The position numbers and the translations under genes are program-made. Positions 8,857-22,845 of a stretch of 64,000 nucleotides of DNA are shown here, piece after piece (position 1 is the stretch's first letter; each line of letters starts with the position of its first letter). Under the pieces are notes generated by a model. It was not told the origin of the DNA. It made no database searches and saw nothing but the letters and a program-made list of their open reading frames with translations. Origin of the DNA: Acidimicrobiales bacterium (GTDB taxonomy: Bacteria > Actinomycetota > Acidimicrobiia > Acidimicrobiales > CATQHL01); the NCBI GenBank assembly GCA_965206165.1, contig OZ242194.1, positions 3,513,881 through 3,577,880 of the forward strand, in the 5' to 3' direction.

Positions 8857-9654
8857 GTGCGGAATCCGGGCGACTTCTTGTTGGAGAATCTCGGCGGTGG
8901 CGTCTGGGGCCACGACGCCGACGAAAGCTGGTGGGGCTTCAACGGCCTGTTCGGCGGCTACCTCGTCAGCCTGGCCGCGCTGGCGTGTGAGGCGACCGTG
9001 GCCGACCCCGACCGCCCGCTGCGCAGCATCACCATGCAGTTCCTGCGGCCCGCGCCCGCCGGGCGCCTGCTTATCGAGGTCACGACCGAGCGGGCAGGGC
9101 GCTCCGTCTGGTTCCTCTCGGGACGGATCACGGCGGAGGGAAAGCTCTGCGCCCTGTTCCTGGTCGTCGCCGCGACCGATCAGGACGGCCAGGAATTCAC
9201 GAACCGGACGATGCCCGAAGTCCCCGCGTTCGAGGAGAGCAGCGACAACGCCGCTCCTCGCATCTTCGCCCTCCCGGTGTTCGACCACTTCGAGGAGCGG
9301 GAGATCCACCGCGACGGTTCCAGCGTGCTCGTCTGGGTCCGCCCGAACTACCCAACGGAGATCGACCTGTCGCTGGTTCTCATGGCTTGCGACGTGATCC
9401 CACCGGTTGCCATCGGTCGCGTGAGCGATCCCCACTTGGCCGGGACCATCACGCTCACCGCGAACCTCCGCTCACCGCTGCCGGTGCCCGCGAGCGCCGG
9501 TGCGCCGGTGCTGGTGGAGTTGCACACTTCGTCATCGACCGGAGGCCACGTGGACGAGACGGCCCTCGCCTGGTCCCCGGACGGGCAACTCCTCGCAGAG
9601 AGCCACCAGGTCCGCTTCCTGCGCCGAGCCCAAGAGGGATTCATCGGCCACTGA
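8857..9654 (+). CDS. acyl-CoA thioesterase-like (double hot-dog, TesB-like) protein
   Basis: 3' part of ORF 8476..9654. GFNGLFGGYLVSLAALACEA...ITMQFLRPAPAG...VWVRP...LVLMACDVIPP resembles thioesterase-like superfamily proteins. Start set at in-frame GTG 8857, because the upstream ORF part is Arg/Pro-rich. The start is uncertain. Confidence 0.6.
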   Translation: MRNPGDFLLENLGGGVWGHDADESWWGFNGLFGGYLVSLAALACEATVADPDRPLRSITMQFLRPAPAGRLLIEVTTERAGRSVWFLSGRITAEGKLCALFLVVAATDQDGQEFTNRTMPEVPAFEESSDNAAPRIFALPVFDHFEEREIHRDGSSVLVWVRPNYPTEIDLSLVLMACDVIPPVAIGRVSDPHLAGTITLTANLRSPLPVPASAGAPVLVELHTSSSTGGHVDETALAWSPDGQLLAESHQVRFLRRAQEGFIGH

Positions 9655-10285
9655 GAATGCGCAGCACGAGATCCTCGATGCTCGTCTCGACGGCGAGCCC
9701 ATCGCGCTCCCGGAGCCACTCGAGATTGCGGCGATGCACGATGTCCTCGGACCGATACCGGTTGAGGAACACGGTGAGACTCGAGGTCCCGAGCACGCCG
9801 GCCCCAAGACGGGTGGCATCGATCGCCCCGAGCCCGGCGTCGGCCACGAGCAGCACCCGGTCGGCGACGAGTGCGCCGATGAGATCGCTACTGTCGCCAT
9901 CATCGGCAAGTGGTGACCGCACGCCGCCAACCGTCTCGACGAATCCGAAGTCCGGTGCGGGCGATGGCCATTGGAGTTCATCCAGCAGTTCCGCCAGCTT
10001 GGGAGGCACCTGGCCGAGCAGGGAGGCCGCGATCGGCGGCGCCATCGCCTCGGGGTACCACCGGTGCGCCGGGCACACCGCCTGCGGATGCTCGCCGGTC
10101 GCCGCAGCGAGTACCTCGGCGTCGGTCGCGCCGATGTCGTCGGGCGTGTAGGACTGCACCGGCTTGCGCGCGCCAACCGCCAGACCCCGGCCACGGAGAC
10201 TCCCGAGGACCCCGGCGGTGAGCCAGGTCTTGCCAACACCGGTGGCCGTGCCGGCGACGGCGACGAGCACCGAGGGCCGGGTCAT
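9641..10285 (-). CDS. bioD: dethiobiotin synthetase
   Basis: Lower part of ORF 9641..10831. MTRPSVLVAVAGTATGVGKTWLTAG contains the P-loop. ATGA overlap with the bioF stop. Last gene of the bio array. Confidence 0.9.
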   Translation of the reverse strand: MTRPSVLVAVAGTATGVGKTWLTAGVLGSLRGRGLAVGARKPVQSYTPDDIGATDAEVLAAATGEHPQAVCPAHRWYPEAMAPPIAASLLGQVPPKLAELLDELQWPSPAPDFGFVETVGGVRSPLADDGDSSDLIGALVADRVLLVADAGLGAIDATRLGAGVLGTSSLTVFLNRYRSEDIVHRRNLEWLRERDGLAVETSIEDLVLRILSGR

Positions 10286-11430
10286 CTGCAAACCCCGATC
10301 CGCTCCAGGGCTCCGATCAGACGGTCGACCATGTCGTCGGTGTGGGCGGCCGACAGGGCGACGCGGAGTCGCGAGGTGCCCGCCGGCACGGTCGGAGGAC
10401 GGATGGCCGGTACGAGGAAGCCCTCGTCGAGGAGAGACTCGGCCACACGAACGGCGCGAGCCTCCGAACCCACGATGATCGGCACGATCGGGGACGGATG
10501 ACCGGGACGCAGGCGGTCGGTGAGTCGCCGAAGACGAGCGATGAGCGAGGCTCCTTCGGGGTTCCGCGAGATGCGGATGGCCTCGAGCGCGGCAGCGGCG
10601 TCGGCAGGAGCCAGTCCAGTGGAGAAGATGAATGGTCGGGCCCGGTTCACGAGGAGATCGACAAGGGGACCCGGACCGCACACCGCCCCGCCGAGCGAAC
10701 CCAGGGCCTTCGAGAGGGTGACGACGCGGAGCATCCGGAGCCGCTCGAGCTCCGCGAGTGCGCTGAGCGACGGACCGAACACCGAGTGCGCCTCGTCGAT
10801 CACCAGCAGGGCGCCGCGGCGCGCGCAGCACTCACCGAGCGCGACGACATCGGCCTCGTCGCCGTCCATCGAGAAGACCGCGTCGGTGACAACCATCGTT
10901 CTCGGCGCCTCGGCTCCGCCGAGCAGCTGGTCGACGTGACCGACGTCGTTGTGCCGCGCGATCGCGATCGGCGACCGGCTGAGGCGGCAGCCGTCGATGA
11001 TCGAAGCATGGTTCAACTCGTCGCTGACGACGAGGCAGTCGGGGCCGCCGAGGGTGGCGAGCACGCCGAGGTTCGCGGCATACCCCGTGGGGAAGACCAG
11101 GGCTCGCGCCGTCTTCTTCCAGTCGGCCAGTTCGACCTCCAGATCGGCGTGGACGGGGCGGGACCCGACGACGAGCCGGCTCGCCGTGGCACCGGTCCCC
11201 CAACGATCCAGCGCGGCGTGGGCCGCGCCGATCACGTCGGGGTGACACGAGAGTCCGAGGTAGTCGTTGGACGCAAAGGAGATCACCTCCCGGCCCGCGA
11301 GATGTCCCACTGGTCCCCTGGCGTCGAACGTCCGCACGTCTCGCCACTGGTCGGCGGCGCGGATCGTGCCGAGTTGCTCGCCGGCCCAGGCTTCGAAGTC
11401 CCGGTGCGCCGGGGTGGCCGACCCCGTCAT
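10282..11430 (-). CDS. bioF: 8-amino-7-oxononanoate synthase
   Basis: ORF 10282..11541, start at ATG 11430 (ATGA overlap with the bioA stop). SNDYLGL motif. PLP-lysine context VVTLSKALGSLGG. Confidence 0.9.
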   Translation of the reverse strand: MTGSATPAHRDFEAWAGEQLGTIRAADQWRDVRTFDARGPVGHLAGREVISFASNDYLGLSCHPDVIGAAHAALDRWGTGATASRLVVGSRPVHADLEVELADWKKTARALVFPTGYAANLGVLATLGGPDCLVVSDELNHASIIDGCRLSRSPIAIARHNDVGHVDQLLGGAEAPRTMVVTDAVFSMDGDEADVVALGECCARRGALLVIDEAHSVFGPSLSALAELERLRMLRVVTLSKALGSLGGAVCGPGPLVDLLVNRARPFIFSTGLAPADAAAALEAIRISRNPEGASLIARLRRLTDRLRPGHPSPIVPIIVGSEARAVRVAESLLDEGFLVPAIRPPTVPAGTSRLRVALSAAHTDDMVDRLIGALERIGVCR

Positions 11431-12776
11431 GAGAGAGCCTCGGCCGCATCGACCATGGCGCCGGTGATGCGGCGCAGATCTTCGGCGGTGCTGATGTAGG
11501 GCGGCATCGTGTAGAGAAGCCGCCCGAAGGGGCGCAGCCACACTCCCCGGTCGAGGAGAAGCTCCTGTGTCGCGGCGGCGGGCACCGGGTCAACCGTCTC
11601 GATCACGCCGATGGCCCCGAGCACCCGCACGTCGGCCACACCCGCCAGCGTGGCGGCCGGCGCCAGTCCTGTCTCGAGGGCTTCTGCAATCGAGGCCACC
11701 TCGCCGGCCCAGGGCCTCGACAGAAGCAGCCGGACAGAAGCCAGGGAGACGGCGGCCGCCAGGGGATTGCCCATGAAGGTGGGTCCGTGCATGAGCGCCC
11801 CGGACTCCGCGGCGCTGACCCCCGCGGCCACTTCTGCGGTGCACAGCGTCGCCGCCATGGACAGGTAGCCGCCGGTGAGTGCCTTGCCGACGCACATTAT
11901 GTCGGGGCGGATCCCGGCGTGGTCGCAGCCGAACAACCTGCCCGATCTGGCGAAGCCGGTGGCGATCTCGTCGGCGATGAGCAGCGTGCCGTGCTCGTCG
12001 CAGAGTCGTCGGACCTCCCGGAGATACTCCGGGGAGTAGAAGCGCATCCCGCCGGCGCCCTGAACGACCGGCTCGAGAATGACGGCGGCGATCTCGTCAC
12101 AGTGGTCAGCGAGCAGCCCGGCGAACCCGGCGATGTGGTTGGCACCGAAGGGTTGGCCGAAGCGAGGCTCGGGAGCCGGGGCGAACAGTTGGGGAGGAAG
12201 GACGCCGGCGAACATCGAGTGCATCCCGGTCACCGGGTCGCAGACCGACATGGCCCCCAACGTGTCGCCGTAGTAGCCCGAGGCGACGGTGAGCAGGCGC
12301 GTCCGCTCGGGCCGGCCGGTGCCGCGTGCGTACTGCAGTGCCATCTTGATGGCGACCTCCACGGACACCGAGCCGGAGTCGGCGAAGAAGACGTGCTCGA
12401 GCCCGGCCGGAACGATCTCGACGAGCAACTCGGCGAGTTCGACCGCGGCGGGGTGCGTGATGCCGCCGAACATGACGTGGGCGACCGCCTCCAGCTGTTT
12501 GCGAATGGCCTCATCGAGAACCGGGTGGCGATGCCCGTGGATGGCAGCCCACCACGACGACATACCGTCGATGGCCTGCCGCCCGTCGGCCAGGTGGAGC
12601 GTGGTGCCTTCGGCGGCCACGACGGGGACCGCCGGAGAGACCGACGGCATCGGGGCGTAGGGGTGCCAGACCCGTTTCCGATCGCGCGCAACCAGATCAA
12701 GGTGCTTCCGGTGCTGAACCTCGCCCGGATCGACGGTGCGGGCAGCACCCTTGGCTACCGCATCGCCGGTGGTCAT
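11427..12776 (-). CDS. bioA: adenosylmethionine-8-amino-7-oxononanoate aminotransferase
   Basis: ORF 11427..12941, start at ATG 12776. Class-III aminotransferase motifs SSWWAAIHGHRHP, DEIATGFARSGRLFG, CVGKALTGGY. Confidence 0.9.
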   Translation of the reverse strand: MTTGDAVAKGAARTVDPGEVQHRKHLDLVARDRKRVWHPYAPMPSVSPAVPVVAAEGTTLHLADGRQAIDGMSSWWAAIHGHRHPVLDEAIRKQLEAVAHVMFGGITHPAAVELAELLVEIVPAGLEHVFFADSGSVSVEVAIKMALQYARGTGRPERTRLLTVASGYYGDTLGAMSVCDPVTGMHSMFAGVLPPQLFAPAPEPRFGQPFGANHIAGFAGLLADHCDEIAAVILEPVVQGAGGMRFYSPEYLREVRRLCDEHGTLLIADEIATGFARSGRLFGCDHAGIRPDIMCVGKALTGGYLSMAATLCTAEVAAGVSAAESGALMHGPTFMGNPLAAAVSLASVRLLLSRPWAGEVASIAEALETGLAPAATLAGVADVRVLGAIGVIETVDPVPAAATQELLLDRGVWLRPFGRLLYTMPPYISTAEDLRRITGAMVDAAEALS

Positions 12777-12988
12777 GGGTCGTCCCGGGACACGGGGCTT
12801 GCCTCGCCGGGACCGCCGGAACTCGTGGCCGTCCGGCACCTGCGGCACTCGGCCTTCCAGCCCGTCGGCTGAACGGTTACCCGCAGCAGACGGCCGCACT
12901 GCCGGCAGTAGCGGGGCGCCTCGTACGGGGGGTGCCCGCACCGATCACAGTGACGAGAACCGCACCACGGGCAGAACGCCCCGGCCAT
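12773..12988 (-). CDS. small cysteine-rich protein between bioB and bioA (candidate biotin synthase auxiliary protein, BsaP-like)
   Basis: ORF track 71 aa: MAGAFCPWCGSRHCDRCGHPPYEAPRYCRQCGRLLRVTVQPTGWKAECRRC..., with four CxxC pairs. It starts 5 nt after the bioB stop, and its own stop overlaps the bioA ATG (ATGA). Confidence 0.55.
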   Translation of the reverse strand: MAGAFCPWCGSRHCDRCGHPPYEAPRYCRQCGRLLRVTVQPTGWKAECRRCRTATSSGGPGEASPVSRDDP

Positions 12989-12993
12989 GGTCG

Positions 12994-14022
12994 TCAGATC
13001 ACGCCGGAGAGGGCGCCGATCGGCATCGCCAGATCATCGAGCATCCGTAGGTCCTCGTCGGGCTGGCGGCCCAGGGTGGTGAGATAGTTGCCGACGATCA
13101 GGGCGTTGATGCCGGCCGTCATGCCCATGGCCTGATATTCCCGCAGGGTGATCTCCCGGCCCCCGGCGTAGCGGAGAATCACGCCGGGAAGAGCCAGTCG
13201 GAACAGGGCTATCCAGCGCAAGGCTTCGAGCGGCCGGAGCGGCTTGCGAATCTGCAGCGGCGTGCCGGGACGCGGGTTCAGGAAGTTGAGCGGCACCTCT
13301 GCCGGCTCGAGCGACTGGAGTTGCCCCAACAGCTCGACCCGCTGGGCGACGCTCTCCCCCATGCCGAGAAGCGCCCCGCAGCACAGTTCCATGCCGTGCC
13401 GGCGGACCAGGAGGCACGTCTCGAAACGCTCCTCCCAGGTGTGGGTGGTGACGATACGACCGAAGAAGCTCCGCGATGTCTCCAGGTTGTGGTTGTAGCG
13501 GTGCACACCGCCGGCGGCCAGCCGCCGCGCCTGGTCGTCGGTGAGGATGCCTGCGCTCACCGCGACGTTCAGACCGGTCTCGGCTTCGATGAGCGGCACC
13601 AGCGAGATGATCCGCTGCAGCGTGCGCTCGTCGGGACCCCGAACGGCCAGGACCATGCAGAACTCGCTGGCCCCCGTCCGGGCCGTCTCTTGCGCCGCGG
13701 CGAGTACTTCGTCGGTGTCGATGAACGGTGTCGCCGGCAGTGTCTCGGAGAAGCGGGCCGACTGGGAACAGAAGTGGCAGTCCTCGGGGCAGCCGCCCGT
13801 CCTCACCGACAAGATGCCCTCGATCTCGACGGTCGGACCGCACCACTCGAGGCGGACCGCATGCGCCAGCGCCGCAAGCGCCGGGACATGCTCGTCGTTG
13901 AGGCGGGCCAGGGAGTCCAACTCCTCGGCACCCAGGAGGCGGCGCTCATCGAGCAGGGCGCCCTCGGCGCACCGCAGCAATTGCCGAGCCGTCGCAGCAG
14001 CACCGGTGGGGGCGGAATGCAC
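12994..14022 (-). CDS. bioB: biotin synthase (radical SAM)
   Basis: ORF track 342 aa. Radical-SAM cluster motif CPEDCHFCSQS. The GTG start shares one base with the TAG stop of the upstream KipA-like gene. Confidence 0.93.
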   Translation of the reverse strand: MHSAPTGAAATARQLLRCAEGALLDERRLLGAEELDSLARLNDEHVPALAALAHAVRLEWCGPTVEIEGILSVRTGGCPEDCHFCSQSARFSETLPATPFIDTDEVLAAAQETARTGASEFCMVLAVRGPDERTLQRIISLVPLIEAETGLNVAVSAGILTDDQARRLAAGGVHRYNHNLETSRSFFGRIVTTHTWEERFETCLLVRRHGMELCCGALLGMGESVAQRVELLGQLQSLEPAEVPLNFLNPRPGTPLQIRKPLRPLEALRWIALFRLALPGVILRYAGGREITLREYQAMGMTAGINALIVGNYLTTLGRQPDEDLRMLDDLAMPIGALSGVI

Positions 14023-14990
14023 TACCCGACCGCCTCTCGGAGGCCATGGAGTCGGGCGGTCCGGTCCCGGCGGGCACCAAGGGCCGTCTGGAGGTCGACC
14101 TCGACGAACCGGGTCGTGATATTCGGCGCCGACTGGCCGACGTGGTCCATGTCGGCGCTGATAACGGTCCCCACCATGACGTAGCCGCCGCCGGACACGG
14201 CGTCGCGGTGCAGCACGATCGGTTCGACCCCGCCGGGGATCTGGATCGATCCGATGGGGTACGGGGCATCGACGATGTTGGAAGGATCGCTGCCTGCGCC
14301 GAACGGCGCAACACGATCACGGAAGTCGAGCACGGCCCCCCGGTAGCGGAATCCGGTCCGGTCGGCGACGGGCGTGAGACGCCACTCGGTCTCAAGGAAT
14401 GTCCGGCGGGCGGCGTCGGTGAGACGATGGTCGTAGAGGCCCATCATCACCCTGATCTCACGATGACGCGGATGCGTACTTCGCAGCTCCTCGGGAACGG
14501 ACCGGCCCGGCGCGACACCATCGTGGTGGCCGATCGGGAGCTCGTCGCCCGCCACAAGAGGTCCGCCGTGCAGTCCGCCGAGCGCCCCGAGAGCGTAGGT
14601 CGAGCGGCTGCCGAGCACCGCCGGCACGGCGAAGCCGCCGCTGACGGCGATGTAGGCCCGCGCCCCGGAGGCCAGGAAGTCGAACGACAGAACGTCACCC
14701 GCGCCGACGGCGAAACTCTCCCAGGTCGGTCGGGGCCCACCGTTGAGCCGCGGCGGAAGCTCGGCTCCGGTCACGGCCACGGTGGTCGACTGGTCGAAAC
14801 GCAGCTCGGGCCCCATGTAGGTGCATTCCAGGACGGCCGCTTCGTCGCTATTGCCGACCAGGATGTTGGCAGCCACCGACGAGTACTGGTCGAGCGACCC
14901 CGACGGGGGGATGCCCACGTTGTAGTAGCCCGGCCGGCCCGTGTCCTGGACGGTGGTGGCGATGCCGGGCACCAGGACGCTAACTCCCAT
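14022..14990 (-). CDS. KipA / PxpC family protein (allophanate hydrolase subunit 2 family, carboxyltransferase-like)
   Basis: ORF track 322 aa. MGVSVLVPGIATTVQDTGRPGYYNVGIPPSGSLDQYS...AYIAVSGGF...GDELPIG is typical of KipA/PxpC. Confidence 0.85.
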   Translation of the reverse strand: MGVSVLVPGIATTVQDTGRPGYYNVGIPPSGSLDQYSSVAANILVGNSDEAAVLECTYMGPELRFDQSTTVAVTGAELPPRLNGGPRPTWESFAVGAGDVLSFDFLASGARAYIAVSGGFAVPAVLGSRSTYALGALGGLHGGPLVAGDELPIGHHDGVAPGRSVPEELRSTHPRHREIRVMMGLYDHRLTDAARRTFLETEWRLTPVADRTGFRYRGAVLDFRDRVAPFGAGSDPSNIVDAPYPIGSIQIPGGVEPIVLHRDAVSGGGYVMVGTVISADMDHVGQSAPNITTRFVEVDLQTALGARRDRTARLHGLREAVG

Positions 14991-15873
14991 GGAGAACCTC
15001 CATCAGGCCGCGGTTGTACCCGCCGGGATCGGCCAGGAACTCGCCCAGCGAGAACTCCACGGGCGCCTGCTTGAACCGGAACCGCCTCGCGGTCACCTGG
15101 GCCGTCAACTCGTCGTAAGCCTCCCGGTCGATGGGCTCGAACTTCGCAATTGTCCCCGGTTTGAAGAACACCAGGAAGTCGTCGAAGTCGGGGTGGGTCT
15201 GGGTCGGGTCGTAGATCGGAGCCGGCGTGATGCCGAACATCTGGTACCCGCCCGCGCCGCGCACCGAGTAGATGCACCCGAAGCAGCCGCCGTGGCCGAT
15301 CGTCTGGCGCGGGGTGTCGGTCCGCGGCGTGAGGTACTTCGGGACCTCGAGTTGGCGCTCCCGCGGCACCATCTGGAACAGGAACGGCAGGCCGGCCACG
15401 AAACCGACCATCGACGTGAACCAGGGCGAGCCCGAGTGGGCGGCGATGAAGCCGTCCACCGAGTCGAATCCGTTGATCCGGGCGGCGTACTCGAGGTCGG
15501 TGCCGTCGGGGTTCTGGTGATGCGACCGGAACCGCATGAGGGTCTCGCGGGTCCAGGGGTCGTTGTAGAGGACCGGCACCTCGACAATGCTCGTCTGCAG
15601 GTCGAACCCGGTGCCGTCACCGACCTCCGCCTCGATCGATTCGAGTTCACCGAGAAGATCCAGCGGTTCGATGCGATCGGGGTCGAAGCGGACCTGATAC
15701 GAGGCGTTGGCCGGGCAGATGTCGATCACACCGTCGATACCGCGGTCGCCGAGAGTGGAGGTGATCGCCATCACCTTGAAATTTGCCTCGAGGTTCATCT
15801 CCTCGTCGAGTTCGACGTAGAGATGGTCGTCCCCGCCGAAGCTGTGCCGGGTCGTGGACCGGCCGTTTCTCAC
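14980..15873 (-). CDS. KipI / PxpB family protein (allophanate hydrolase subunit 1 family)
   Basis: Lower part of ORF 14980..16236. Start GTG 15873 lies 13 nt after the biotin carboxylase stop, with AAGGGGA in between. DDHLYVELDEEMNLEANFKV...ICPANASYQVRFDP...GCFGCIYSVRGAGGYQMFG. Confidence 0.85.
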   Translation of the reverse strand: MRNGRSTTRHSFGGDDHLYVELDEEMNLEANFKVMAITSTLGDRGIDGVIDICPANASYQVRFDPDRIEPLDLLGELESIEAEVGDGTGFDLQTSIVEVPVLYNDPWTRETLMRFRSHHQNPDGTDLEYAARINGFDSVDGFIAAHSGSPWFTSMVGFVAGLPFLFQMVPRERQLEVPKYLTPRTDTPRQTIGHGGCFGCIYSVRGAGGYQMFGITPAPIYDPTQTHPDFDDFLVFFKPGTIAKFEPIDREAYDELTAQVTARRFRFKQAPVEFSLGEFLADPGGYNRGLMEVLHGS

Positions 15874-15886
15874 CGTCTGTCCCCTT

Positions 15887-17242
15887 TCACGTTCCGAGCC
15901 AGCGCTCGACAAAGCCGGTGTCGTAACTGCCGTCGACCACTTCGGGGGTCGACAGTAGGTCGCCAATGAGCGGGGCCGTCGTCTTGATGCCGACAATCCG
16001 CAGTTCGCGCATCGCCCGGCGGGCGCGCGCCAGAGCAGCCGGCCGGTCGACATCCCAAACAATGATCTTGGCGATGAGAGAGTCGTAGAAGGGCGGTACG
16101 GCGCTGCCCGGCCGCATTGTGGTCGAGGTGCGGACCCCGGGGCCCGCCGGCAGGTCGATGTCACGGATCGTTCCCGGGCAGGGCATGAAGCCGTTGGCCG
16201 GATCCTCGGCGTTGATGCGCATCTCGATCGCCGCACCCCTCGGCTTCACATCCTCCTGAGTGAACGAGATGGGGAGGCCGCCGGCTTGGCGGAACTGCTC
16301 GCGCACCAGGTCGAGCCCGCAGATCATCTCGGTCACCGGGTGCTCCACCTGGATCCGGGTGTTCATCTCGATGAAGAAGAACTCCTCGGTGGCACTGTCG
16401 ACGAGGAACTCGACGGTCCCGGCACCCTCGTAGGCGACCGCGTCGGCGAGTGCCAGCGCGGCGGTGTGCAGGCCGGCACGAACCGCAGGGCTCAGGCTGG
16501 AGGCGAGGGCCTCCTCGATCAGCTTCTGGCGCCTGCGCTGCAGAGAACACTCGCGCTCGAACAGGTGGATCGCGCGGTCACCGTCGCCGAACACCTGCAC
16601 CTCGACGTGGCGGGCGCTGGGGATGTAGCGCTCGAGATACAGGCCGTCGTCGCCGAAGGCAGCCCGGGCCTCGTTCCGTGCGGCAGTGATACAACCAGCC
16701 AGATCGTCCGACTGTTCCACGATACGGATCCCGCGGCCGCCGCCGCCTGCGGAAGCCTTGACCAGCAGCGGGAAGCCGATCGTCGCCGCCGCCTCCGTCG
16801 CTTCCTGAACCGAGCCGATCCCACCTGCGGTGCCGGGTACGACCGGCACGCCGACCGACGCGGCCGTCTCCCGTGCCGCCGCCTTGTCGCCCATCAGCGA
16901 GATGGCCTCAGGCCGCGGTCCCACGAAGCGCAGACCCAACGCAGCGCAGCGTGCCGCGAATGCCGCGTTCTCCGACAGGAACCCGTAGCCCGGATGGATG
17001 GCGTCGCAGCCCGCCGCCAGGGCGGCACCGATGATGGCGTCCGCGTCGAGGTAGCTCCGCGACGCGGGCGGAGGGCCGATCTCGACGGCCTCGGTGGCGA
17101 GACGCACGTGACCGGCATCCCGATCGGCCTCGGAGTACACCGCGACGGTGTCGAGCCCGAGTTCCTCCGCGGCTCGGATGACCCGCATGGCGATCTCGCC
17201 GCGGTTGGCGACGAGCACCCTTTTCAAGGGACGGGGGCTCAT
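15887..17242 (-). CDS. biotin carboxylase (ATP-grasp, AccC family)
   Basis: ORF 15887..17626, start at ATG 17242 (ATGA overlap with the BCCP stop). MSPRPLKRVLVANRGEIAMRVIRAAEELG...HPGYGFLSENAAFA...EMNTRIQVEHPVTE. Confidence 0.93.
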   Translation of the reverse strand: MSPRPLKRVLVANRGEIAMRVIRAAEELGLDTVAVYSEADRDAGHVRLATEAVEIGPPPASRSYLDADAIIGAALAAGCDAIHPGYGFLSENAAFAARCAALGLRFVGPRPEAISLMGDKAAARETAASVGVPVVPGTAGGIGSVQEATEAAATIGFPLLVKASAGGGGRGIRIVEQSDDLAGCITAARNEARAAFGDDGLYLERYIPSARHVEVQVFGDGDRAIHLFERECSLQRRRQKLIEEALASSLSPAVRAGLHTAALALADAVAYEGAGTVEFLVDSATEEFFFIEMNTRIQVEHPVTEMICGLDLVREQFRQAGGLPISFTQEDVKPRGAAIEMRINAEDPANGFMPCPGTIRDIDLPAGPGVRTSTTMRPGSAVPPFYDSLIAKIIVWDVDRPAALARARRAMRELRIVGIKTTAPLIGDLLSTPEVVDGSYDTGFVERWLGT

Positions 17243-17472
17243 CGGTTGACGGTGAACAGCACCTGGCCGGCGTCGACCATCTCGGCATCGGGGACCTCGA
17301 CGGTGGCGATCGTCCCGGCCACCCCGGCCGGCACGTCGAAGAACTGCTTCATGACCTCGACGAGGGCGACCACGGTGCCGGCCTCGACCGGGCTGCCGAC
17401 ATCCACGAACGGATCGGCCCCCGGCGAGGGGCGCCGGTAGAACACACCGGGAATGGGCGACCTGATGTCCAT
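17239..17472 (-). CDS. biotin carboxyl carrier protein (single biotinyl domain, 77 aa)
   Basis: ORF 17239..17559, start at ATG 17472 with GGGAGGA upstream. MDIRSPIPGVFY...VVALVEVMKQFFDVPAGVAGTI contains the biotinyl-lysine motif (V-M-K). Confidence 0.88.
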   Translation of the reverse strand: MDIRSPIPGVFYRRPSPGADPFVDVGSPVEAGTVVALVEVMKQFFDVPAGVAGTIATVEVPDAEMVDAGQVLFTVNR

Positions 17473-17474: not shown

Positions 17475-17879
17475 TCACGGGTGTCCTCCCACGGTCGGAC
17501 CGTCCTCGGGCTGCGGAGGCTGCAGCGCGTAGTCCCACACCTTGGCGATGATCTGCCACCTGCCGTCCTCGCGCACGAACACCAACTCGTCGATGAACAC
17601 CTTCGGCAGGTAGGCGAGCCGGGCACGCACGTGGGCCGTGACCGGTGTCGCCGAACTCAGCGAGAGCAACTCGTCGAAACGGTCGTCCTCCCGGGCAGCG
17701 GGAGACGGCCGGCCGCCAATCAGGGCCAGGTACGCCTCCTTGTCGATGGTCAGTCCGTCCCGCCGGCAGACAAGGCGGATCTCGGGATGAAGGACCGATC
17801 CCAGCAGTTCGACGTCGCCGTGGTGGATCCCGTCGAAATAGGCGGCCATCGCCTCGGTGAGTTCGCTGATCGCGCTCAT
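17475..17879 (-). CDS. NTF2-like (SnoaL / lumazine-binding-like) protein
   Basis: ORF 17475..17954, start at ATG 17879 (ATGA overlap with the upstream stop). MSAISELTEAMAAYFDGIHHGDVELLGSVLHPE...VFVREDGRWQIIAKVW is the usual NTF2-family pattern. Confidence 0.7.
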   Translation of the reverse strand: MSAISELTEAMAAYFDGIHHGDVELLGSVLHPEIRLVCRRDGLTIDKEAYLALIGGRPSPAAREDDRFDELLSLSSATPVTAHVRARLAYLPKVFIDELVFVREDGRWQIIAKVWDYALQPPQPEDGPTVGGHP

Positions 17880-18598
17880 GAGAGGTACGGGGCGAGCGCC
17901 GCCCTGACGGCGGCGGCCAGCTCGACGGCGCCGGGAGTGTCGGAGTGGACGCACACCACGTCGGCCCGCATCGGTATCTCGGTCCCGTCGTTGGCGACCG
18001 CCACGTTCTCGGTCACCGCCCGGACAGCGCCGGCGGCCGCCTCGCCGGGATCGACAGCGACGTGCTCGCGGGTGATGATCAGGCCACCGTCGGGCCGGTA
18101 CTCCAGGTCGGTGTAGTACTCGGCGTAGAAGCCCTGGGGCCTTTCACCCCAGACCTCCTCGTGGGTGGTGTTCGCCATGCCCATGAGGGGGACGTCGAAG
18201 GCGTCGGCGGCGGCGGCGACCGCCGCGGCCACGTCGGGGTCGCGGGCCGCCTGGCCGTAGAGAGCGCCATGGGCCTTGATGTAGCCGAGTTGCATCCCTT
18301 CGGCGGCCAGAAAACCGCTGAGGGCACCGGCCTGGTAGATCACCGCGGCCGTTAGTTCCTCCGGATCCATGGCCATGGCCCGGCGGCCGAAACCCTGCAG
18401 ATCCGGATAGGAGGGGTGCGCCCCCACCGTGACCCCATGCCGCTTGGCCAGCCGCACGGTCCGCTGCATGACGCTGGGATCGGAGGCGTGGAAACCGCAC
18501 GCCACGTTGGCCATGTCGAGGTACGGCATGATGGCGTCGTCGTCGCCGCAGCGGTAGATGCCGTATGCCTCGCCCATGTCACAGTTGATTGCGACCAT
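17876..18598 (-). CDS. LamB/YcsF (PxpA) family protein
   Basis: ORF track 240 aa. MVAINCDMGEAYG...MANVACGFHASDPSVMQRTVRLAKRHGVTVGAHPSYPDLQGFGRR is a strong LamB/YcsF signature. Confidence 0.9.
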   Translation of the reverse strand: MVAINCDMGEAYGIYRCGDDDAIMPYLDMANVACGFHASDPSVMQRTVRLAKRHGVTVGAHPSYPDLQGFGRRAMAMDPEELTAAVIYQAGALSGFLAAEGMQLGYIKAHGALYGQAARDPDVAAAVAAAADAFDVPLMGMANTTHEEVWGERPQGFYAEYYTDLEYRPDGGLIITREHVAVDPGEAAAGAVRAVTENVAVANDGTEIPMRADVVCVHSDTPGAVELAAAVRAALAPYLS

Positions 18599-18616
18599 GT
18601 CGTTCCTCAGCCTTTC

Positions 18617-18952
18617 CTAGGGTCTTGCGGTCTTGGGTGAGTCGCCGCCGGGGTCGACGAAGACGTCATCGCCCCTGATCTCGGCGGGATAGTTGGCGAT
18701 CTCGGCGTGGTCGGGGTTGATGCCCCGGCAGGTCACGAGATCGAACTCCCAGAGATGCTGGCTGCAGATCAAGGTGTTCTTGTAGAGGTCACCCTCCACG
18801 AGCGCCACCCTCTGGTGGGGACAGTAGGCCTGGGTGGCGCGCACGATGCCACCGTCAAGATGCGCCACGAGCACCTCGGTGCCGTCCACCTCGAAGACCC
18901 CCATGTCGCCTTCCCACAGGTCATCGAGGCTACAGACGCGGGCGAACGCCAT
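18617..18952 (-). CDS. Rieske [2Fe-2S] ferredoxin of multicomponent monooxygenase (TmoC-like)
   Basis: ORF track 111 aa. MAFARVCSLDDLWEGDMGVFEVDGTEVLV...CPHQ...CSQHLWEF. By my recollection it is close to T4MO ferredoxin throughout. Confidence 0.9.
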   Translation of the reverse strand: MAFARVCSLDDLWEGDMGVFEVDGTEVLVAHLDGGIVRATQAYCPHQRVALVEGDLYKNTLICSQHLWEFDLVTCRGINPDHAEIANYPAEIRGDDVFVDPGGDSPKTARP

Positions 18953-18996
18953 CAGGGCGGTCCCACGGTGCTGAATCGACGTTGCTCAGCAGTCTC

Positions 18997-19992
18997 CTAG
19001 CCGTCACTGGCCGCGAGGCCGACGCTGTGGTGGAACTCACGCATCGACGCCGCCCCGGTCGCGGCGCTGCCGGGAACGTCCGGAAGCGCTCCGACGAAGG
19101 ATTCGAGAGCGGACACCCCATGCGGGGTCCAGGCGTCGAGCCACTCCAGCAGCTGCGCCCGATTCGACTCGACGCCGAGCATGTGGCCGACAAGGGCCTG
19201 CGCCCAGCGCCGCGACCGGTCACCGTCCCGCAGAGCCGCCTCGGCCATCAGCGCCAGCAGCGTGTCATCGTTGCGCCGCGCGCTCTGCGCCATCGCCCGA
19301 TGGAAGCCTTCGGAGATCGCCGGCAGCGCCACCAGGTTCAATGCGACGAAGGCCTCCGCCCAGTCGTAGGTGACCAGGGTCCGCTCCATCAGTTCCCGGT
19401 AGCCCTGCCAGGCCGAAGCGTTCTCCCACGCGGCGCGTTCGCTATCGCCGAACGACCGGTCGGGGTGCGCCTTCGCCAGCGACGCCGTCCGGTAGGCGAT
19501 CCGGGACAACCAGCGCAGTGCATCGGCGGTCTGGAAGGCCGCGCAGTTGCAGATCGTGCTGGCGGGCGCCATGTGCACGAGGTAGGCCGAGGCCATCTGG
19601 CTGGTGTGGATCAGGTACCGCCCGGGGGTGTACAGAGCCTCGAGCGCGTCGAGCCAGGCGCCGGGAAGGCTCTCGTCGTGTCCCTCGCTGTCGTACTGAT
19701 CCGCCAGCCCGTCGACATAGGACTCCTGGCCGTCCTGGAGGATGTTGTACGTGCGGTAGACCATCTCGTCGGGATCGCGGAACGAATCCCAGTCGTCGTG
19801 CGTGATCGGGCTGTTGTCGCGGTAGCGCATCACCCAGTCGTTCATGAAGCTGGCGCCCTCGACCTCGAATGGCACCTGCTCGCCCCGGGCGTGCCAGAGC
19901 AGACCGGTCGAGACGATCTCGTACTCCGACGGCCGCCGGCGCTGGCCGACCAGATGACTCCACGTTCTGAGCGGCTTGAGTACCTCAGTCAT
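18997..19992 (-). CDS. soluble diiron monooxygenase hydroxylase beta subunit (TmoE-like)
   Basis: ORF track 331 aa. N-terminus LKPLRTWSHLVGQRRRPSEYEIVS is characteristic of toluene/alkene monooxygenase beta subunits. Confidence 0.88.
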   Translation of the reverse strand: MTEVLKPLRTWSHLVGQRRRPSEYEIVSTGLLWHARGEQVPFEVEGASFMNDWVMRYRDNSPITHDDWDSFRDPDEMVYRTYNILQDGQESYVDGLADQYDSEGHDESLPGAWLDALEALYTPGRYLIHTSQMASAYLVHMAPASTICNCAAFQTADALRWLSRIAYRTASLAKAHPDRSFGDSERAAWENASAWQGYRELMERTLVTYDWAEAFVALNLVALPAISEGFHRAMAQSARRNDDTLLALMAEAALRDGDRSRRWAQALVGHMLGVESNRAQLLEWLDAWTPHGVSALESFVGALPDVPGSAATGAASMREFHHSVGLAASDG

Positions 19993-20275
19993 GGCGTTCT
20001 CCCAGGTAGAAACGAATCACTTCGGTCGAGGTGTCGATCCGGCCCGCGAAGCTGGGCATGTTCGCCTCGAGTTCGTGCAGCTTGAACGGCCGTCCCAGCT
20101 CCCGTTCGACCGAGGCACGGGTGATCACGCACTCGCCCTCGACCTGGATCCGGACGTACGAACCGCGGTCCACAACGTTGACCGCCCGCCCGGCGTTGTC
20201 CTCCTCAGCAGCCGCCACAACGGCTCGGGCAACCTCACCGCTCTGGATCACGGGACCGACGGTGCCGACGCTCAT
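19985..20275 (-). CDS. monooxygenase effector/coupling protein (MmoB/DmpM family, TmoD-like)
   Basis: ORF 19985..20278. Start is ATG 20275 or GTG 20278, both overlapping the upstream TGA, with GAGGAGG upstream. VGPVIQSGEVARAVV...DRGSYVRIQVEGECVITRASVERELGRPFKLHELEANMPSFAGRI. Confidence 0.9.
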   Translation of the reverse strand: MSVGTVGPVIQSGEVARAVVAAAEEDNAGRAVNVVDRGSYVRIQVEGECVITRASVERELGRPFKLHELEANMPSFAGRIDTSTEVIRFYLGERHD

Positions 20276-20532
20276 CACGCCTCCTCGTAGTAGAAGTCGA
20301 GTGTCTGGGTTGGCGCCAGACCGGCTTCGGCCACCGTCATGTCCAGCGGCAGCGGCTCGGTCTCGCCCGCTTTCCGGGCACGGATGACCCCGCCCTCACC
20401 GGCGACGTGCAGGCCGATCACGTTCTCCGTCGCCGCCTCGGCGACCTGGGCCATGGTGTGCTCGGTGTCGACGACGAGAAGCTTCAGCACGAAGTCCCCG
20501 TAGAAGTTCACCGAGAGTGGGAATGCTGCCAT
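20275..20532 (-). CDS. TmoB-like small (gamma) subunit of toluene/alkene monooxygenase
   Basis: ORF track 85 aa. MAAFPLSVNFYGDFVLKLLVVDTEHTMAQVAEA parallels the TmoB N-terminus as I recall it. Confidence 0.8.
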   Translation of the reverse strand: MAAFPLSVNFYGDFVLKLLVVDTEHTMAQVAEAATENVIGLHVAGEGGVIRARKAGETEPLPLDMTVAEAGLAPTQTLDFYYEEA

Positions 20533-20544
20533 CGGTCGTTCCTC

Positions 20545-22038
20545 CTATGCCGCGTCGGCACTCTCGACATAGGCGGAGACCCACTCGTAGTCGTGGGCGT
20601 CGCCGCCGCCGTCGCTGAGCACGCCGATGCCCATGTACTGGAGCACGCCGCCGAGGTCGGGCGGCTGGATCTCGCCGGCGAGCAGGCGATCAACGATCGT
20701 CTTGTGGGCGGCGTAGCGCTCCGGGTCCTGCTCGAAGATCCAGCGATCGGGCTCCGAGCCGAAGTGGTAGAGCCGCCCGTTGTACTCCAGCGGGTAGTCC
20801 TGGGTCGTCTTGAACGGCGTCCCGACGATCGGGATGTTCGACATGTTGCAGATCATCGGCAACGTGCCGGGAACGGTCCTGGCGATATCGCCCCGCTTGA
20901 GGTTCTCGATGATGACGTCCCAGCACTTGCCGAAGGTGTCGTTCCACCCCGGGTACTTCTCCTCGAGCCAGTCGCGCTCGTCGGGGCCCACACCGGCCGC
21001 CGGCGAGAACCACAGGGTGGGCCGCCACGACCACGTGCCGAGTTGCTGACCGTGGTGATGCTCGTCGATGTCGGCCAGGAACATGTCCCAGTACCAGGGC
21101 TTCGCCAAGCCCAGGTCCTCCAGGCTGTTGACGAACTGCGTGACGATCCACTCTTGCATGAACTCCTTGAACGATCCCTCCCGTTTGTCCAGGGGGATGT
21201 AGTAGTCCATCGGGATGCCCGTCAGGATCGTGAACAACTTCCACGACCGCCAGAACGCCACGTCGACGAGGCGCTGAGCCCGCTCCTTCTCGCCGTTCTC
21301 GATCAGCATCGACAGAATCGGTGTGCCGATCTGGGCGTGGCGGGCCTCGTCGGACTGGATGCTCTGGATCAGCTTGGAGAAGCTGAAGTCCCCGGCGTTG
21401 GCCGCATCCGACGAAAGGCCGATGAACTGCAGGTTGGTGAACCCGGTCTCGAACGCGAAGTTCAACAGGATGGATGTCGAGATCGCGTCGCGGGTCATCA
21501 TCATGTCGTCGAAGAAGTGACGGCCCGCGATGATGCCCCAGTTGTTGGACTTCATGCCCGAATGGGCCCAGTCGAACTGGCGATCCGTCGGTACGTACTC
21601 GTGGGGGAAGAACAACTGGAGTTGCGCGTGGCGGATCTCGTCGAGCATCCCGAACGTGCCCATGTTCCGCATGCCCGGGGACCGGGACCAACGCACGAAC
21701 CGCGACTCCATGAGGGCGGCGTTGTACTCGACGACCGATACCGCGCCGTAGTGGAGTTTCAAGGTGCTGATCCACCCTGGATCCACCTTGGAGCGCAGGT
21801 CCATGCGTTCCAGCGCCGCCTTGACCGAGTAGGCCCCGGCGTCCTTCTGGCGCTGGATGTCGACGTACTCCCGGTAGCTGATCTTGTACGGCTCGTCGTA
21901 GGTGGACCACACCTCGTCGGGAATGTCGTAGTCGCCGCTGTGCCCGGAGGGATACAACTCGTCCTCAGTGACATAGCCGGGTGTCCACTCCGTGCGCCGC
22001 GCGATGTCGTACCACTCGCTCCGCTCGAGCAAAGCCAT
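20545..22038 (-). CDS. soluble diiron monooxygenase hydroxylase alpha subunit (TmoA-like)
   Basis: ORF track 497 aa. Both diiron ligand motifs are present (FGMLDEIRHAQLQ and SIQSDEARHAQIG). N-terminus SEWYDIARRTEWTPGYVTEDELYP. AAGGAGA RBS upstream. Confidence 0.93.
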   Translation of the reverse strand: MALLERSEWYDIARRTEWTPGYVTEDELYPSGHSGDYDIPDEVWSTYDEPYKISYREYVDIQRQKDAGAYSVKAALERMDLRSKVDPGWISTLKLHYGAVSVVEYNAALMESRFVRWSRSPGMRNMGTFGMLDEIRHAQLQLFFPHEYVPTDRQFDWAHSGMKSNNWGIIAGRHFFDDMMMTRDAISTSILLNFAFETGFTNLQFIGLSSDAANAGDFSFSKLIQSIQSDEARHAQIGTPILSMLIENGEKERAQRLVDVAFWRSWKLFTILTGIPMDYYIPLDKREGSFKEFMQEWIVTQFVNSLEDLGLAKPWYWDMFLADIDEHHHGQQLGTWSWRPTLWFSPAAGVGPDERDWLEEKYPGWNDTFGKCWDVIIENLKRGDIARTVPGTLPMICNMSNIPIVGTPFKTTQDYPLEYNGRLYHFGSEPDRWIFEQDPERYAAHKTIVDRLLAGEIQPPDLGGVLQYMGIGVLSDGGGDAHDYEWVSAYVESADAA

Positions 22039-22104
22039 GCTGGGTCTCCTTCTGCTTGTTGATTCCGTCGAAGTGCCGGTGAGTCTCTGCTGCGCCCTCG
22101 GCGC

Positions 22105-22845
22105 TCAGGAGCCGTGCGCCGAGCCGAGCGGCCCCTCGCCGCCCGGATAGCAGAACGAGATCGCCGGTGAGTAGAAGCCGAACGTGACCTCGAGAGGGTC
22201 CGCCGGCCGCAGGTCCCACGTCGGATGGCCCGAGTCGAGGAACTCCAGCGACACAACTTCGAACTCCGCGGCGAAGTCGGCTACGAACGGGTACCGCCCG
22301 CTGACCATCTCACCATCGACTCGGGTGACGTACCGCAGCTGTCCGGTTCCTCGAGCCGGGTTACCGACGACCACGTCGCAGACGGTACGGATGATCGGGT
22401 TCCCTTCGACAATGGTCGTCGCCGTCAGCGTCCCGCCATCGAGGTCCAGATCGGTTCGCCCCTCCGAGATGGGCACCCCGTGGGCCGCGGCGTAGCGGTT
22501 CATGGCGACACTGCTGTTCATGTAGTGGGTCCACCAGCGGGCGGGAACCCCCGCCTCGGTGTCGAGGCCGGCGAGATCGAGCCCCAGATAGGTCAGCGAG
22601 TAGGCGCCGAACGAGTCCGGCTCCCCGGCCGAGGAGATCTGCGACTCGTCGTCGACGACGTACTGGTTCATGTAGCAGAGACTTCCGTCGGTCGGCATCA
22701 ACCCGTCGGGCACGAGCGCGGCGGCTGCGTCCGGATCGGCCGGCTTCCACACGAGGTACAACATCCGAGCATCCGTGATGAGCTGCGGCGCATGCGCGAA
22801 ACCGGTCATTCCGAACTCCTCGACCCGTGTACCGACTACCGACAT
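22105..22845 (-). CDS. hypothetical protein, possibly acetoacetate-decarboxylase-like fold
   Basis: ORF track 246 aa. Its size and the N-terminal pattern ARMLYLVWKPADPDAAAALVPDGLMPTDG... remind me of ADC-superfamily proteins, but the assignment is weak. It is clearly coding, with an RBS and tight packing. Confidence 0.35.
   Translation of the reverse strand: MSVVGTRVEEFGMTGFAHAPQLITDARMLYLVWKPADPDAAAALVPDGLMPTDGSLCYMNQYVVDDESQISSAGEPDSFGAYSLTYLGLDLAGLDTEAGVPARWWTHYMNSSVAMNRYAAAHGVPISEGRTDLDLDGGTLTATTIVEGNPIIRTVCDVVVGNPARGTGQLRYVTRVDGEMVSGRYPFVADFAAEFEVVSLEFLDSGHPTWDLRPADPLEVTFGFYSPAISFCYPGGEGPLGSAHGS

Follow-up and report, generated by a model that had tools for sequence, protein, structure and literature searches.

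In this study, we analysed a window of 64,000 nucleotides (nt; the whole stretch, with a G+C content of ~70%) from the genome of an Acidimicrobiales bacterium (GenBank assembly GCA_965206165.1, contig OZ242194.1, positions 3,513,881 to 3,577,880), in which 17 intact open reading frames (ORFs; g01 to g17) follow one another on the minus strand from position 22845 to 9641. The array is made up of three blocks: a diiron monooxygenase preceded by g01 (block 1, g01 to g06), a biotin-dependent carboxylase set resembling PxpABC (block 2, g07 to g12) and biotin synthesis genes (block 3, g13 to g17). Our preferred reading, to which we assign a probability of roughly 0.45, is that the array is a composite catabolic operon in which an arene monooxygenase leads into an N-carboxylative opening of a lactam, with the third block supplying the biotin. 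The array consists of known enzyme families placed in an undescribed, widely conserved pathway architecture. A full-text search of the literature found no description of a module that joins a monooxygenase to biotin carboxylase, LamB and KipI-KipA, in agreement with the initial annotation of this stretch, which was made from its letters and knew of no system with this combination.

The evidence that carries this reading is foremost the conserved linkage of the monooxygenase to the carboxylase genes. Relatives of the monooxygenase alpha subunit (g02) were scanned with one genome per species, and the resulting 80 loci with 10-kb flanks (designated here by L numbers) were searched with all window proteins. 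Wherever the contig reaches, all 22 loci having an alpha subunit at least 70% identical to g02 carry g01 along with the genes for PxpA, biotin carboxyl carrier protein (BCCP), PxpB and PxpC, and biotin carboxylase (BC) was called in 18 of the 22. These linked loci come from five Acidimicrobiales/Acidimicrobiia metagenome-assembled genomes (MAGs), other Actinomycetota MAGs, Gordonia asplenii, four species of Nocardia, two of Saccharopolyspora, Nocardioides ginsengisoli, Oryzobacter terrae and two Burkholderiales MAGs. None of the ~57 classical toluene-monooxygenase loci (alpha subunit at most 65% identical) carries g01 or the carboxylase genes within the 10-kb flanks, and one Sneathiellales locus (alpha subunit 65% identical) has g01 and PxpA within the available stretch. 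In two loci (L012 and L013) the carboxylase set is inverted, lying on the opposite strand, yet still adjoins the monooxygenase. The same module was met in independent look-ups of Saccharopolyspora oryzae, Gordonia, Nocardia africana and Amycolatopsis (full module). In a neighbour-joining tree of the alpha subunits, the 19 non-redundant linked sequences (18 linked loci plus the window) formed one exclusive clade, whose sister was the g01-bearing Sneathiellales sequence. The adjacency of blocks 1 and 2 is far beyond chance. The proposal of the initial annotation that the monooxygenase and the PxpABC-like set form a functional unit is upheld by this linkage, by its survival of inversion and by the monophyly of the alpha subunits, and the chance juxtaposition that it had named as an alternative is contradicted by the neighbourhoods themselves, where a TmoA-like alpha subunit at that level of identity lay near carboxylase genes in every locus whose contig reached far enough. 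As a separate observation, one closely related MAG (Acidimicrobiia 277c_6, L010:14609-15732) has no BC gene between BCCP and PxpB, either through deletion, in which case another locus would provide BC, or as an assembly artefact.

The second line of evidence concerns the nature of the carboxylase set. The LamB/YcsF protein PxpA is encoded by g07 (17876..18598, minus strand, as are all genes of the array; Pfam LamB_YcsF, 1.9e-86), which scores above the PxpA subfamily cut-off (NF003814, 263.6 vs 226 bits). It is followed, after g08, by a BCCP of 77 residues (g09, 17239..17472; NF005457, 104.7 bits vs a cut-off of 87), whose biotinyl-lysine motif ..VEVMKQFF.. contains EVMKQ and a putative biotinylation site at M-K, and by a BC of the ATP-grasp type (g10, 15887..17242; NF006367, 618 bits vs 597) that has all three BC domains, N-terminal, central and C-terminal (Pfam Biotin_carb_N, CPSase_L_D2 and Biotin_carb_C). 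The carboxyltransferase (CT) is split between g11 (14980..15873; 297 residues), a long PxpB/KipI-like form with CT subdomains C-D (Pfam CT_C_D; TIGR02712, 1.5e-29), and the PxpC/KipA-like g12 (14022..14990) with subdomains A-B (Pfam CT_A_B, 8.1e-85). Both fall under the equivalog cut-offs of their PxpABC namesakes (69.8 vs 145.55 for PxpB; 182 vs 500 for PxpC). The best solved relative of g12 is the CT domain of urea carboxylase (3e-42), ahead of Escherichia coli PxpC, and the alignment covers residues 479-789 of 3va7; g11, which is ~75 residues longer than PxpB, aligns to residues 842-1088 of the same structure, the whole C-D region. By these sequence comparisons the CT is of the urea-carboxylase type. 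Urea carboxylase carboxylates an amide nitrogen, and to our knowledge the substrates of CTs of this type are amide or guanidine nitrogens, not enolates.

The contexts in which the carboxylase set occurs elsewhere point in the same direction. Metagenome contigs were searched with g11, and three database relatives were looked up in addition, yielding relatives 64-77% identical in g11. This survey revealed PxpA-BCCP-BC-PxpB-PxpC to be a widespread, separate module, with >7,700 close relatives of g11. Sufficient sequence upstream of PxpA was available for 26 loci; an ABC importer leads into the gene in 16 of these, a molybdenum (Mo) hydroxylase in three, an NCS1 permease of the cytosine/uracil/hydantoin/allantoin type in one and the monooxygenase in one. 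The Mo hydroxylases, which belong to the xanthine-dehydrogenase family, lie on the same strand and end 2-15 nt before PxpA (L105:5293-7662, L106 and L111:5237-7630); an IorAB-like Mo hydroxylase likewise stands before a second PxpA-BCCP-BC-PxpB-PxpC copy in L012 (19733-21368). Besides the monooxygenase, the biotin enzyme thus has oxygenating feeders of a second kind in the Mo hydroxylases, a class of enzymes that converts N-heteroaromatics to lactams. Six of the ABC-type operons contain GabT past its equivalog cut-off (596 bits vs 506) and a small cupin, situated between the ABC permease and PxpA (L123:5797-7507, L116, L140, L145, L150 and partly L108), which suggests that these operons turn 2-pyrrolidinone-like lactams into gamma-aminobutyric acid (GABA). 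Other relatives carry an omega-transaminase or an aldehyde dehydrogenase, the latter in L092 and L107. The importers, the Mo hydroxylases, the transaminases or aldehyde dehydrogenase and the PucR regulators of some versions all fit a reaction that starts from an N-heterocycle or cyclic amide and ends in an amino acid or aldehyde. The initial annotation had favoured C-carboxylation of a ketone or epoxide to a beta-keto acid, a view that is disfavoured both by the urea-carboxylase type of the CT and by the GabT, Mo hydroxylase and NCS1/ABC importer genes of the relatives; the amide- or lactam-like substrate that it had listed as a secondary option is the one towards which the contexts of the carboxylase set point.

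By analogy, the carboxylase set most likely opens lactams with the aid of biotin and corresponds, as a bacterial enzyme of several subunits, to LamA/LamB of Aspergillus nidulans. LamA is a urea-amidolyase-like biotin protein, and LamB is the founding member of the LamB/YcsF family. The lamA and lamB genes of A. nidulans are lactam-catabolism genes that are co-regulated with a GABA transaminase and a permease. The fungal and bacterial systems share the same protein families, and the co-regulation of the GABA transaminase with 2-pyrrolidinone use in the fungus mirrors the bacterial operons that contain GabT; the fungal fused protein, however, is known only genetically and has neither an oxygenase feeder nor biotin genes. 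Gamma- and delta-lactams are largely inert towards ordinary hydrolases, and ATP is required by the enzymes known to open such rings, all members of an unrelated family; activation driven by ATP and biotin is therefore chemically reasonable.

Comparison with other characterised systems underlines what is particular to the set in the window. Urea carboxylase, urea amidolyase (DUR1,2) and guanidine carboxylase share with it BC, BCCP and the CT fold (A-B plus C-D), whereas the window set, instead of forming a single BC-CT-BCCP chain, consists of four polypeptides with a LamB/PxpA gene interleaved and is found in contexts other than urea or guanidine use; Pfam and NCBIfam scans detected no allophanate hydrolase or amidase-signature gene in the array. 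The 5-oxoprolinase PxpABC (YbgL/J/K in E. coli, KipI/KipA/PxpA in Bacillus subtilis) has homologous A, B and C components and opens a lactam at the expense of ATP, as we propose for the window set, but is without biotin parts, whereas BCCP and BC stand between A and B in the window and its relatives. Lactamases of the HyuA/HyuB type (the 5-oxoprolinase OplAB and the caprolactamase CapAB) also spend ATP on opening stable medium-ring lactams to omega-amino acids; they differ in belonging to unrelated families of the hydantoinase/acetone-carboxylase superfamily and in not using biotin. The alkene monooxygenase of Xanthobacter Py2 with its coenzyme M-dependent epoxide carboxylation resembles the window in that an enzyme like toluene monooxygenase (TMO) is followed by a CO2-dependent step, the parallel drawn in the initial annotation. 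In Py2 epoxide carboxylation, as in acetone carboxylase, a C-C bond is formed by non-biotin enzymes, whereas the CT type and the genomic partners of the window set point to a transient N-carboxylation. 

The third block of the array encodes all of the late steps of biotin synthesis: BioB (g13, 12994..14022; TIGR00433, 351.9 bits vs a cut-off of 225), BioA (g15, 11427..12776; TIGR00508, 548 vs 405), BioF (g16, 10282..11430) and BioD (g17, 9641..10285). BioB and BioA score above their equivalog cut-offs. For g16 and g17 the respective models are the best matches at scores under the cut-off (TIGR00858, 379 vs 426 bits, for BioF, with which the operon context agrees; TIGR00347, 61 vs 83 bits, and Pfam AAA_26 for BioD). 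Between BioB and BioA lies a gene for a Cys-rich protein of 71 residues resembling the biotin synthase auxiliary protein BsaP (g14, 12773..12988; NF052237, a borderline 37.9 bits vs 39). No gene for supply of the pimeloyl thioester (BioC, BioH, BioW or BioI) was found among the 20 array genes, which include three upstream of g01; the initial annotation of a whole biotin pathway therefore holds for the four late steps plus BsaP and not for the pimeloyl supply.

Among the 47 related loci that could be evaluated, 14 carry a biotin gene after PxpC or inside the set; the identities of BioB, BioA and BsaP were checked against curated models. The arrangements include BioY (in a Chloroflexi MAG), BioB with BsaP, BioB alone (also in L055), BioA-BioD-BioB, BioB between BC and PxpB (peat metagenomes) and aldehyde dehydrogenase-NTF2-BioF, and L096 has BioB-BsaP-BioA-BioF-BioD behind an ABC-fed set without a monooxygenase. 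At least six arrangements are distinct, though some of the loci are closely related. These data support a cofactor supply built into the carboxylase operon, and with it the earlier idea of a supply encoded together with the enzyme it serves.

The sequence identities of the individual genes indicate that the array is a mosaic. PxpA (g07) is 70-72% identical to that of monooxygenase- or Mo-linked sets vs 53-54% to that of L092 and L096, whereas BCCP, BC, PxpB, PxpC and BioB are 57-77% identical to those of L092 and L096 and less similar to those of monooxygenase-linked sets. From this pattern, the array arose by the joining of a block comprising g01, the monooxygenase, PxpA and the NTF2-like gene to a pre-existing BCCP-BC-PxpB-PxpC-bio operon, with the joint at the 2-nt junction of g08 and g09 (17472-17475). 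The combination of all three blocks was seen only in close Acidimicrobiales relatives (L006-L010 and L093-L095), whereas each pairwise combination is widespread. The array is thus not a single invention, as it had first been taken to be, and is composed of modules that exist separately elsewhere.

The monooxygenase genes are in the order A-B-D-E-C. The alpha subunit (g02, 20545..22038; Pfam Phenol_Hydrox, 7.5e-69, with a C-terminal YHS domain) matches TouA (1t0q) with 726 bits and TmoA with 707 bits. It is accompanied by a TmoB-like small (gamma) subunit (g03, 20275..20532; Pfam TmoB, 8.2e-22), an MmoB/DmpM effector (g04, 19985..20278; Pfam MmoB_DmpM, 8.4e-28), a beta subunit (g05, 18997..19992; Pfam Phenol_Hydrox, 3e-65) and a Rieske [2Fe-2S] ferredoxin (g06, 18617..18952; Pfam Rieske, 3.9e-15), so that the Pfam matches account for the beta, gamma, effector and ferredoxin components of a group-2 hydroxylase. 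The six diiron ligands (E104, E134, H137, E197, E231 and H234) are kept in g02 and are invariant in 19/19 linked and 60/60 unlinked sequences. By every sequence criterion save the absent reductase, the enzyme belongs to the family of TMO and toluene/o-xylene monooxygenase (ToMO). ToMO (TouABCDEF) and toluene-4-monooxygenase (T4MO, TmoABCDEF), both group-2 soluble diiron monooxygenases, have the same alpha, TmoB-like, effector, beta and Rieske parts, and their alpha subunits are ~60-65% identical to g02, in which T201, N202, Q141, F176, F196 and F205 are kept as well as the ligands. The window enzyme differs from them in its gene order, in having no reductase gene and in belonging to a separate clade, in which positions 100 and 103, both linked to specificity, carry fixed changes and several polar residues are new (T188, N193, S209, K222 and Q225). 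In addition, the window type always follows a gene for a protein with the acetoacetate decarboxylase (ADC) fold and is tied to a biotin enzyme rather than to phenol or catechol cleavage genes. A total of 31 clade-specific substitutions are fixed in the linked alpha subunits relative to the classical enzymes, many of them in active-site helices; the signatures, several of which are polar, include I100V, G103V, I188T, T193N, M203L, A209S, S222K and S225Q. The linked alpha subunits therefore look like arene-type hydroxylases with a lineage-specific and somewhat more polar pocket.

The ADC-fold protein itself, g01 (22105..22809; 234 residues), has no Pfam match at E <= 0.001, no NCBIfam match and no sequence match among solved structures. 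Its family is large and very conserved, with ~1,400 homologues in metagenomes that are 65-72% identical across orders, a few of which bear weak ADC annotations. An AlphaFold2 model built from 38 homologues (pLDDT 92.9) gave, in Foldseek, 24 top matches that all belong to the ADC superfamily (ADC, MppR, Sbi00515 and Swit_4259; E 1e-11 to 6e-9), and g01 is therefore predicted to have the ADC beta-cone fold of family PF06314. No lysine occupies an invariant or nearly invariant column of the 38 homologues, and the sole lysine of g01 is not conserved. A role as a Schiff-base decarboxylase was accordingly ruled out, and the beta-keto-acid theme loses support: the initial annotation of a possible ADC-like gene at the head of the array proved right as to the fold and not as to that theme. 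Throughout the linked clade g01 sits directly upstream of the alpha subunit, and among relatives of the carboxylase set it is present only alongside a monooxygenase, so that it tracks the monooxygenase and not the carboxylase. A start at 22809, with a GAGGAG Shine-Dalgarno sequence and the 234 residues usual among the homologues, is for these reasons more likely than the alternative at 22845 (246 residues). A search of plasmids for g01 yielded nothing beyond a distant haloarchaeal gene of the ADC family and a single isolated copy in Nostoc. The latter, on plasmid pNsp_a of Nostoc sp. ATCC 53789 (L089, 14848-15657; 51% identity), has no monooxygenase beside it; its neighbours encode a dienelactone hydrolase, a phosphoribosyltransferase, a truncated PuuD-like amidotransferase and a dihydroorotase.

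Considerable variability exists between versions of the module. Terrestrial actinobacterial versions add a TmoF-type reductase, a PucR-family regulator, a second, divergent KipI/KipA pair and often an SRPBCC protein, and have a 4-oxalocrotonate-type (4-OT) tautomerase with Pro1 in the slot held in the window by the NTF2-like g08 (SnoaL/Lumazine_bd_2 type, 17475..17879; Pfam Lumazine_bd_2, 1.7e-21). Proteobacterial versions add a glutathione S-transferase (GST)-like protein and a sugar-type ABC importer. The window has no tautomerase, second KipI/KipA pair or PucR regulator. The isomerase-type slot is nevertheless constant and is filled by three analogous folds, 4-OT, NTF2-like and GST-like, and by comparison of this slot we propose that g08 may serve as a tautomerase or isomerase. 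The flanks of the module differ from genus to genus, and no ring-cleaving dioxygenase or other ring-cleavage gene was found in the conserved module of any version examined; the module must therefore itself convert its substrate to a central metabolite, and within it the PxpA/carboxylase set is the sole candidate for a ring-opening activity. HpaB-type two-component hydroxylases and a transporter of the major facilitator superfamily (MFS), aromatic-acid type, adjoin the module in L017, L019 and L022 (three genera), and UbiX and UbiD adjoin it in S. oryzae (L004), contexts that offer weak circumstantial support for a route through N-heteroaromatics. The second KipI/KipA pair (L004:5348-7323, L086:19116-21106 and other terrestrial loci) is 26-40% identical to g11/g12 and comes without LamB, BC or BCCP; it may belong with MSMEG_0435-0436, a pair that docks on an acyl-CoA carboxylase.

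From these observations we infer the N-carboxylative opening of a lactam, the order of the steps and the kind of substrate. Block 1, g01 with its reductase-less four-component arene monooxygenase, would hydroxylate a small aromatic N-heterocycle at the carbon beside the nitrogen, and the isomerase (NTF2-like here; the Pro1 4-OT or GST-like protein in relatives) would turn the hydroxy-heteroarene into its oxo, or lactam, tautomer. BC would then carboxylate the biotin on BCCP using ATP and bicarbonate, and the split PxpB-like and PxpC-like transferase would hand the carboxyl group on to the nitrogen of the lactam, in the manner of urea carboxylase acting on urea. Hydrolysis of the N-carboxylated ring by PxpA/LamB would give a carbamate that sheds CO2 to leave an amino or enamino acid, which would either yield an aldehyde and ammonia or pass by transamination into central metabolism, making a ring-cleaving dioxygenase unnecessary. 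Block 3, with BioB, BsaP, BioA, BioF and BioD, would provide the biotin. As a guess, the substrate could be a pyrrole-type ring, converted by way of a pyrrolin-2-one to succinic semialdehyde; this is favoured by g11 and g07 being 63-67% identical to their counterparts in the GabT-linked, presumably gamma-lactam, sets, and pyridine-, indole- and imidazole-type rings are equally open.

Several points weigh against this pathway. Searches of the 64-kb window by tblastn found neither a TmoF-type reductase (query from L004), such as terrestrial actinobacterial relatives possess, nor a reductase of the siderophore-interacting-protein (SIP) type (query from L012), and co-transcription of the array is deduced from gene spacing only. 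The pocket of the alpha subunit has stayed largely hydrophobic and closely resembles those of benzene and toluene hydroxylases, so that a plain arene or alkene is a possible substrate. A saturated lactam, as suggested by the GabT-linked operons, is not what an arene hydroxylase would make, and to argue from membership of one enzyme family to an unsaturated lactam is an extrapolation. The pathway as drawn assigns no step to the ADC-fold protein. We know of no biochemically characterised bacterial BC/BCCP/KipI/KipA/LamB set. Further, a KipI/KipA pair from mycobacteria was found to bind an acyl-CoA carboxylase and to show no urea carboxylase activity. That pair (MSMEG_0435-0436) is like the window proteins in consisting of free-standing KipA/KipI-type proteins that use a biotin carboxylase complex, and differs in having no LamB and no dedicated BC or BCCP; a 2026 structural paper lists the function of the mycobacterial KipA/KipI homologues as unknown. 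With respect to electron donors, L012, a relative also without TmoF, has a gene for a SIP-type flavin reductase after its NTF2-like gene (14561-15367), a possible substitute.

The hydrophobic pocket, together with the 707-726 bits by which the alpha subunit matches T4MO and ToMO, is what one would expect if an ordinary arene such as benzene, toluene or phenol were hydroxylated and the biotin enzyme then O- or C-carboxylated the phenol or quinol, or processed its keto tautomer, which would amount to an aerobic version, driven by ATP, of the anaerobic carboxylation of phenol. The nearby HpaB-type phenol hydroxylases, MFS transporter and UbiX/UbiD genes and the presence of a tautomerase would also suit such a route. 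We nevertheless consider it improbable: we know of no precedent for this CT type acting on phenols, the GabT and omega-transaminase partners would go unexplained, and the module lacks an enzyme that would cleave the ring of a carboxylated phenol. Marginally less probable again is a route in which an alkene or alkane gives an epoxide or ketone that is isomerised and then C-carboxylated by the biotin enzyme to a beta-keto acid handled by the ADC-like protein. Enzymes of the TMO family do epoxidise alkenes, an isomerase-type protein is always present, and GST-like proteins open epoxides in isoprene catabolism. The ADC fold of g01 would have a place here, and the RraA-type and beta-hydroxyacid-dehydrogenase-like genes upstream would suit keto acids. 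The CT type, however, is one known to us to act on amide and guanidine nitrogens and not on enolates, close relatives adjoin GabT, Mo hydroxylases of the N-heterocycle type, an NCS1 permease and PucR, g01 is without a Schiff-base lysine, and the upstream genes are confined to close Acidimicrobiales relatives.

Two further explanations loosen the connection between the blocks. Both could act on one family of compounds in an order other than the one proposed, for example with an imported saturated lactam such as 2-pyrrolidinone being opened while the monooxygenase takes another precursor or a side product, or serves only to widen the substrate range. Most relatives of the carboxylase set are indeed fed by importers and not by oxygenases, proteobacterial versions have both an ABC importer and the monooxygenase, and the mosaic seen in the window is recent. 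However, the carboxylase set is retained throughout the linked alpha clade, no importer is found in the array of the window or its relatives, and the isomerase slot lies between the blocks, and for us such an arrangement is decidedly unlikely. Lastly, a hydrocarbon monooxygenase, a 5-oxoprolinase-like system of nitrogen salvage and biotin synthesis could be three unrelated operons, set side by side by chance or for regulation in a streamlined genome. Each module does exist alone elsewhere, a recombination joint lies between g08 and g09, and the gaps of 44 and 66 nt within the array could hide Actinomycetota promoters that escape a scan for the sigma-70 consensus. Such a juxtaposition is very improbable given that blocks 1 and 2 are linked in 22/22 loci of a monophyletic clade that spans two phyla, even through rearrangement, that blocks 2 and 3 are linked in at least six independent arrangements, and that the block junctions are as tight as 18 nt (g06/g07) and a 1-nt overlap (g12/g13). 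The N-carboxylative opening of a lactam derived from the monooxygenase product remains the reading we prefer.

The layout of the array was re-derived from the window sequence. The successive junctions from g01 to g17 are 66, 12, -4, -8, 44, 18, -4, 2, -4, 13, -11, -1, 5, -4, -4 and -4 nt (negative values being overlaps, such as that of the g13 start with the g12 stop), and they match exactly, as does the 17-gene run, those first reported for this stretch. A consensus scan of positions 8500-26000 found no terminator-like site (0 vs 5.3 +/- 2.7 in shuffles) and no minus-strand sigma-70-like site, although the sigma-70 consensus may miss Actinomycetota promoters; the intergenic gaps contain weak inverted repeats and nothing stronger. 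The absence of an internal promoter-like stretch or strong hairpin, noted at the outset, was thereby reproduced. A BioQ-type operator was not found in the window, and no tRNA gene or Rfam family above threshold was detected across the whole 64 kb.

On the same strand the array extends upstream by three genes, directly after the housekeeping gene ahcY, with gaps of 59, -4, 88 and 58 nt. These encode a dienelactone hydrolase (DLH; 24455..25135; 226 residues; Pfam DLH, 1.3e-39), an aldolase or oxaloacetate decarboxylase of the RraA/LigK type (23754..24458; 234 residues; NF006731, 279 bits vs a cut-off of 179), which overlaps the DLH stop by 4 nt, and an NAD-binding, beta-hydroxyacid-dehydrogenase-like protein with DUF1932 (22868..23665; ~265 residues; Pfam NAD_binding_2 and DUF1932). 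The trio was seen only in close Acidimicrobiales relatives, with DLH present in L001 and L006-L010. The nearest relative, L006, is a MAG labelled Acidimicrobiales bacterium with an alpha subunit 99% identical to g02; in another close relative, L001 from a Tara metagenome assembly, an opposite-strand DUF222 gene sits between the NAD-binding/DUF1932 gene and the RraA-like gene. The three genes were considered as pathway members, and with this confinement to close relatives and the split in L001 their membership was left uncertain.

Farther upstream, two other features of the window were recorded. A plus-strand gene for a MazF/PemK-type toxin (28340-28669) lies between a housekeeping block of Trm112, PGI-SIS and ahcY genes and a minus-strand ORF of 822 codons (28938-31406), the product of which has a lipoprotein-like N-terminus and ~15 repeats of the RCC1/BLIP-II type (..SAGxxHSCGLRxDGTxxCWGxNxxGQ..). 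The repeats explain the strong GC/AT skew at 30-32 kb.

If our reading is correct, it has implications well beyond this Acidimicrobiales genome. The pathway would represent a widespread aerobic opening of aromatic N-heterocycles that dispenses with dioxygenases, and would also give a first function, as ATP- and biotin-dependent lactamases including a gamma-butyrolactam hydrolase, to the orphan operons annotated as allophanate hydrolase subunit 1/2 plus LamB plus AccBC; we put forward this broader claim tentatively, at somewhat worse than even odds. Carboxylation of carbon is the textbook role of biotin enzymes, those acting on urea and guanidine being the exceptions, and a large bacterial family in which carboxybiotin does no more than activate a stable lactam ahead of its hydrolysis would put the cofactor to a new use. 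The reading would also settle what is done by the operons long mis-annotated as 'allophanate hydrolase subunit', KipI-KipA or LamB, of which there are thousands in bacteria, and would explain why a gene for biotin synthesis or uptake is frequent in orphan LamB plus AccBC operons. A mild hydrolase for gamma- and delta-lactams is, moreover, explicitly sought for the recycling of nylon-4 and nylon-5 monomers. For the bacteria themselves, the pathway would constitute a strategy for degrading N-heteroaromatics without a dioxygenase, and the repeated attachment of biotin genes to the carboxylase set represents a clear natural example of cofactor provisioning within a catabolic operon.

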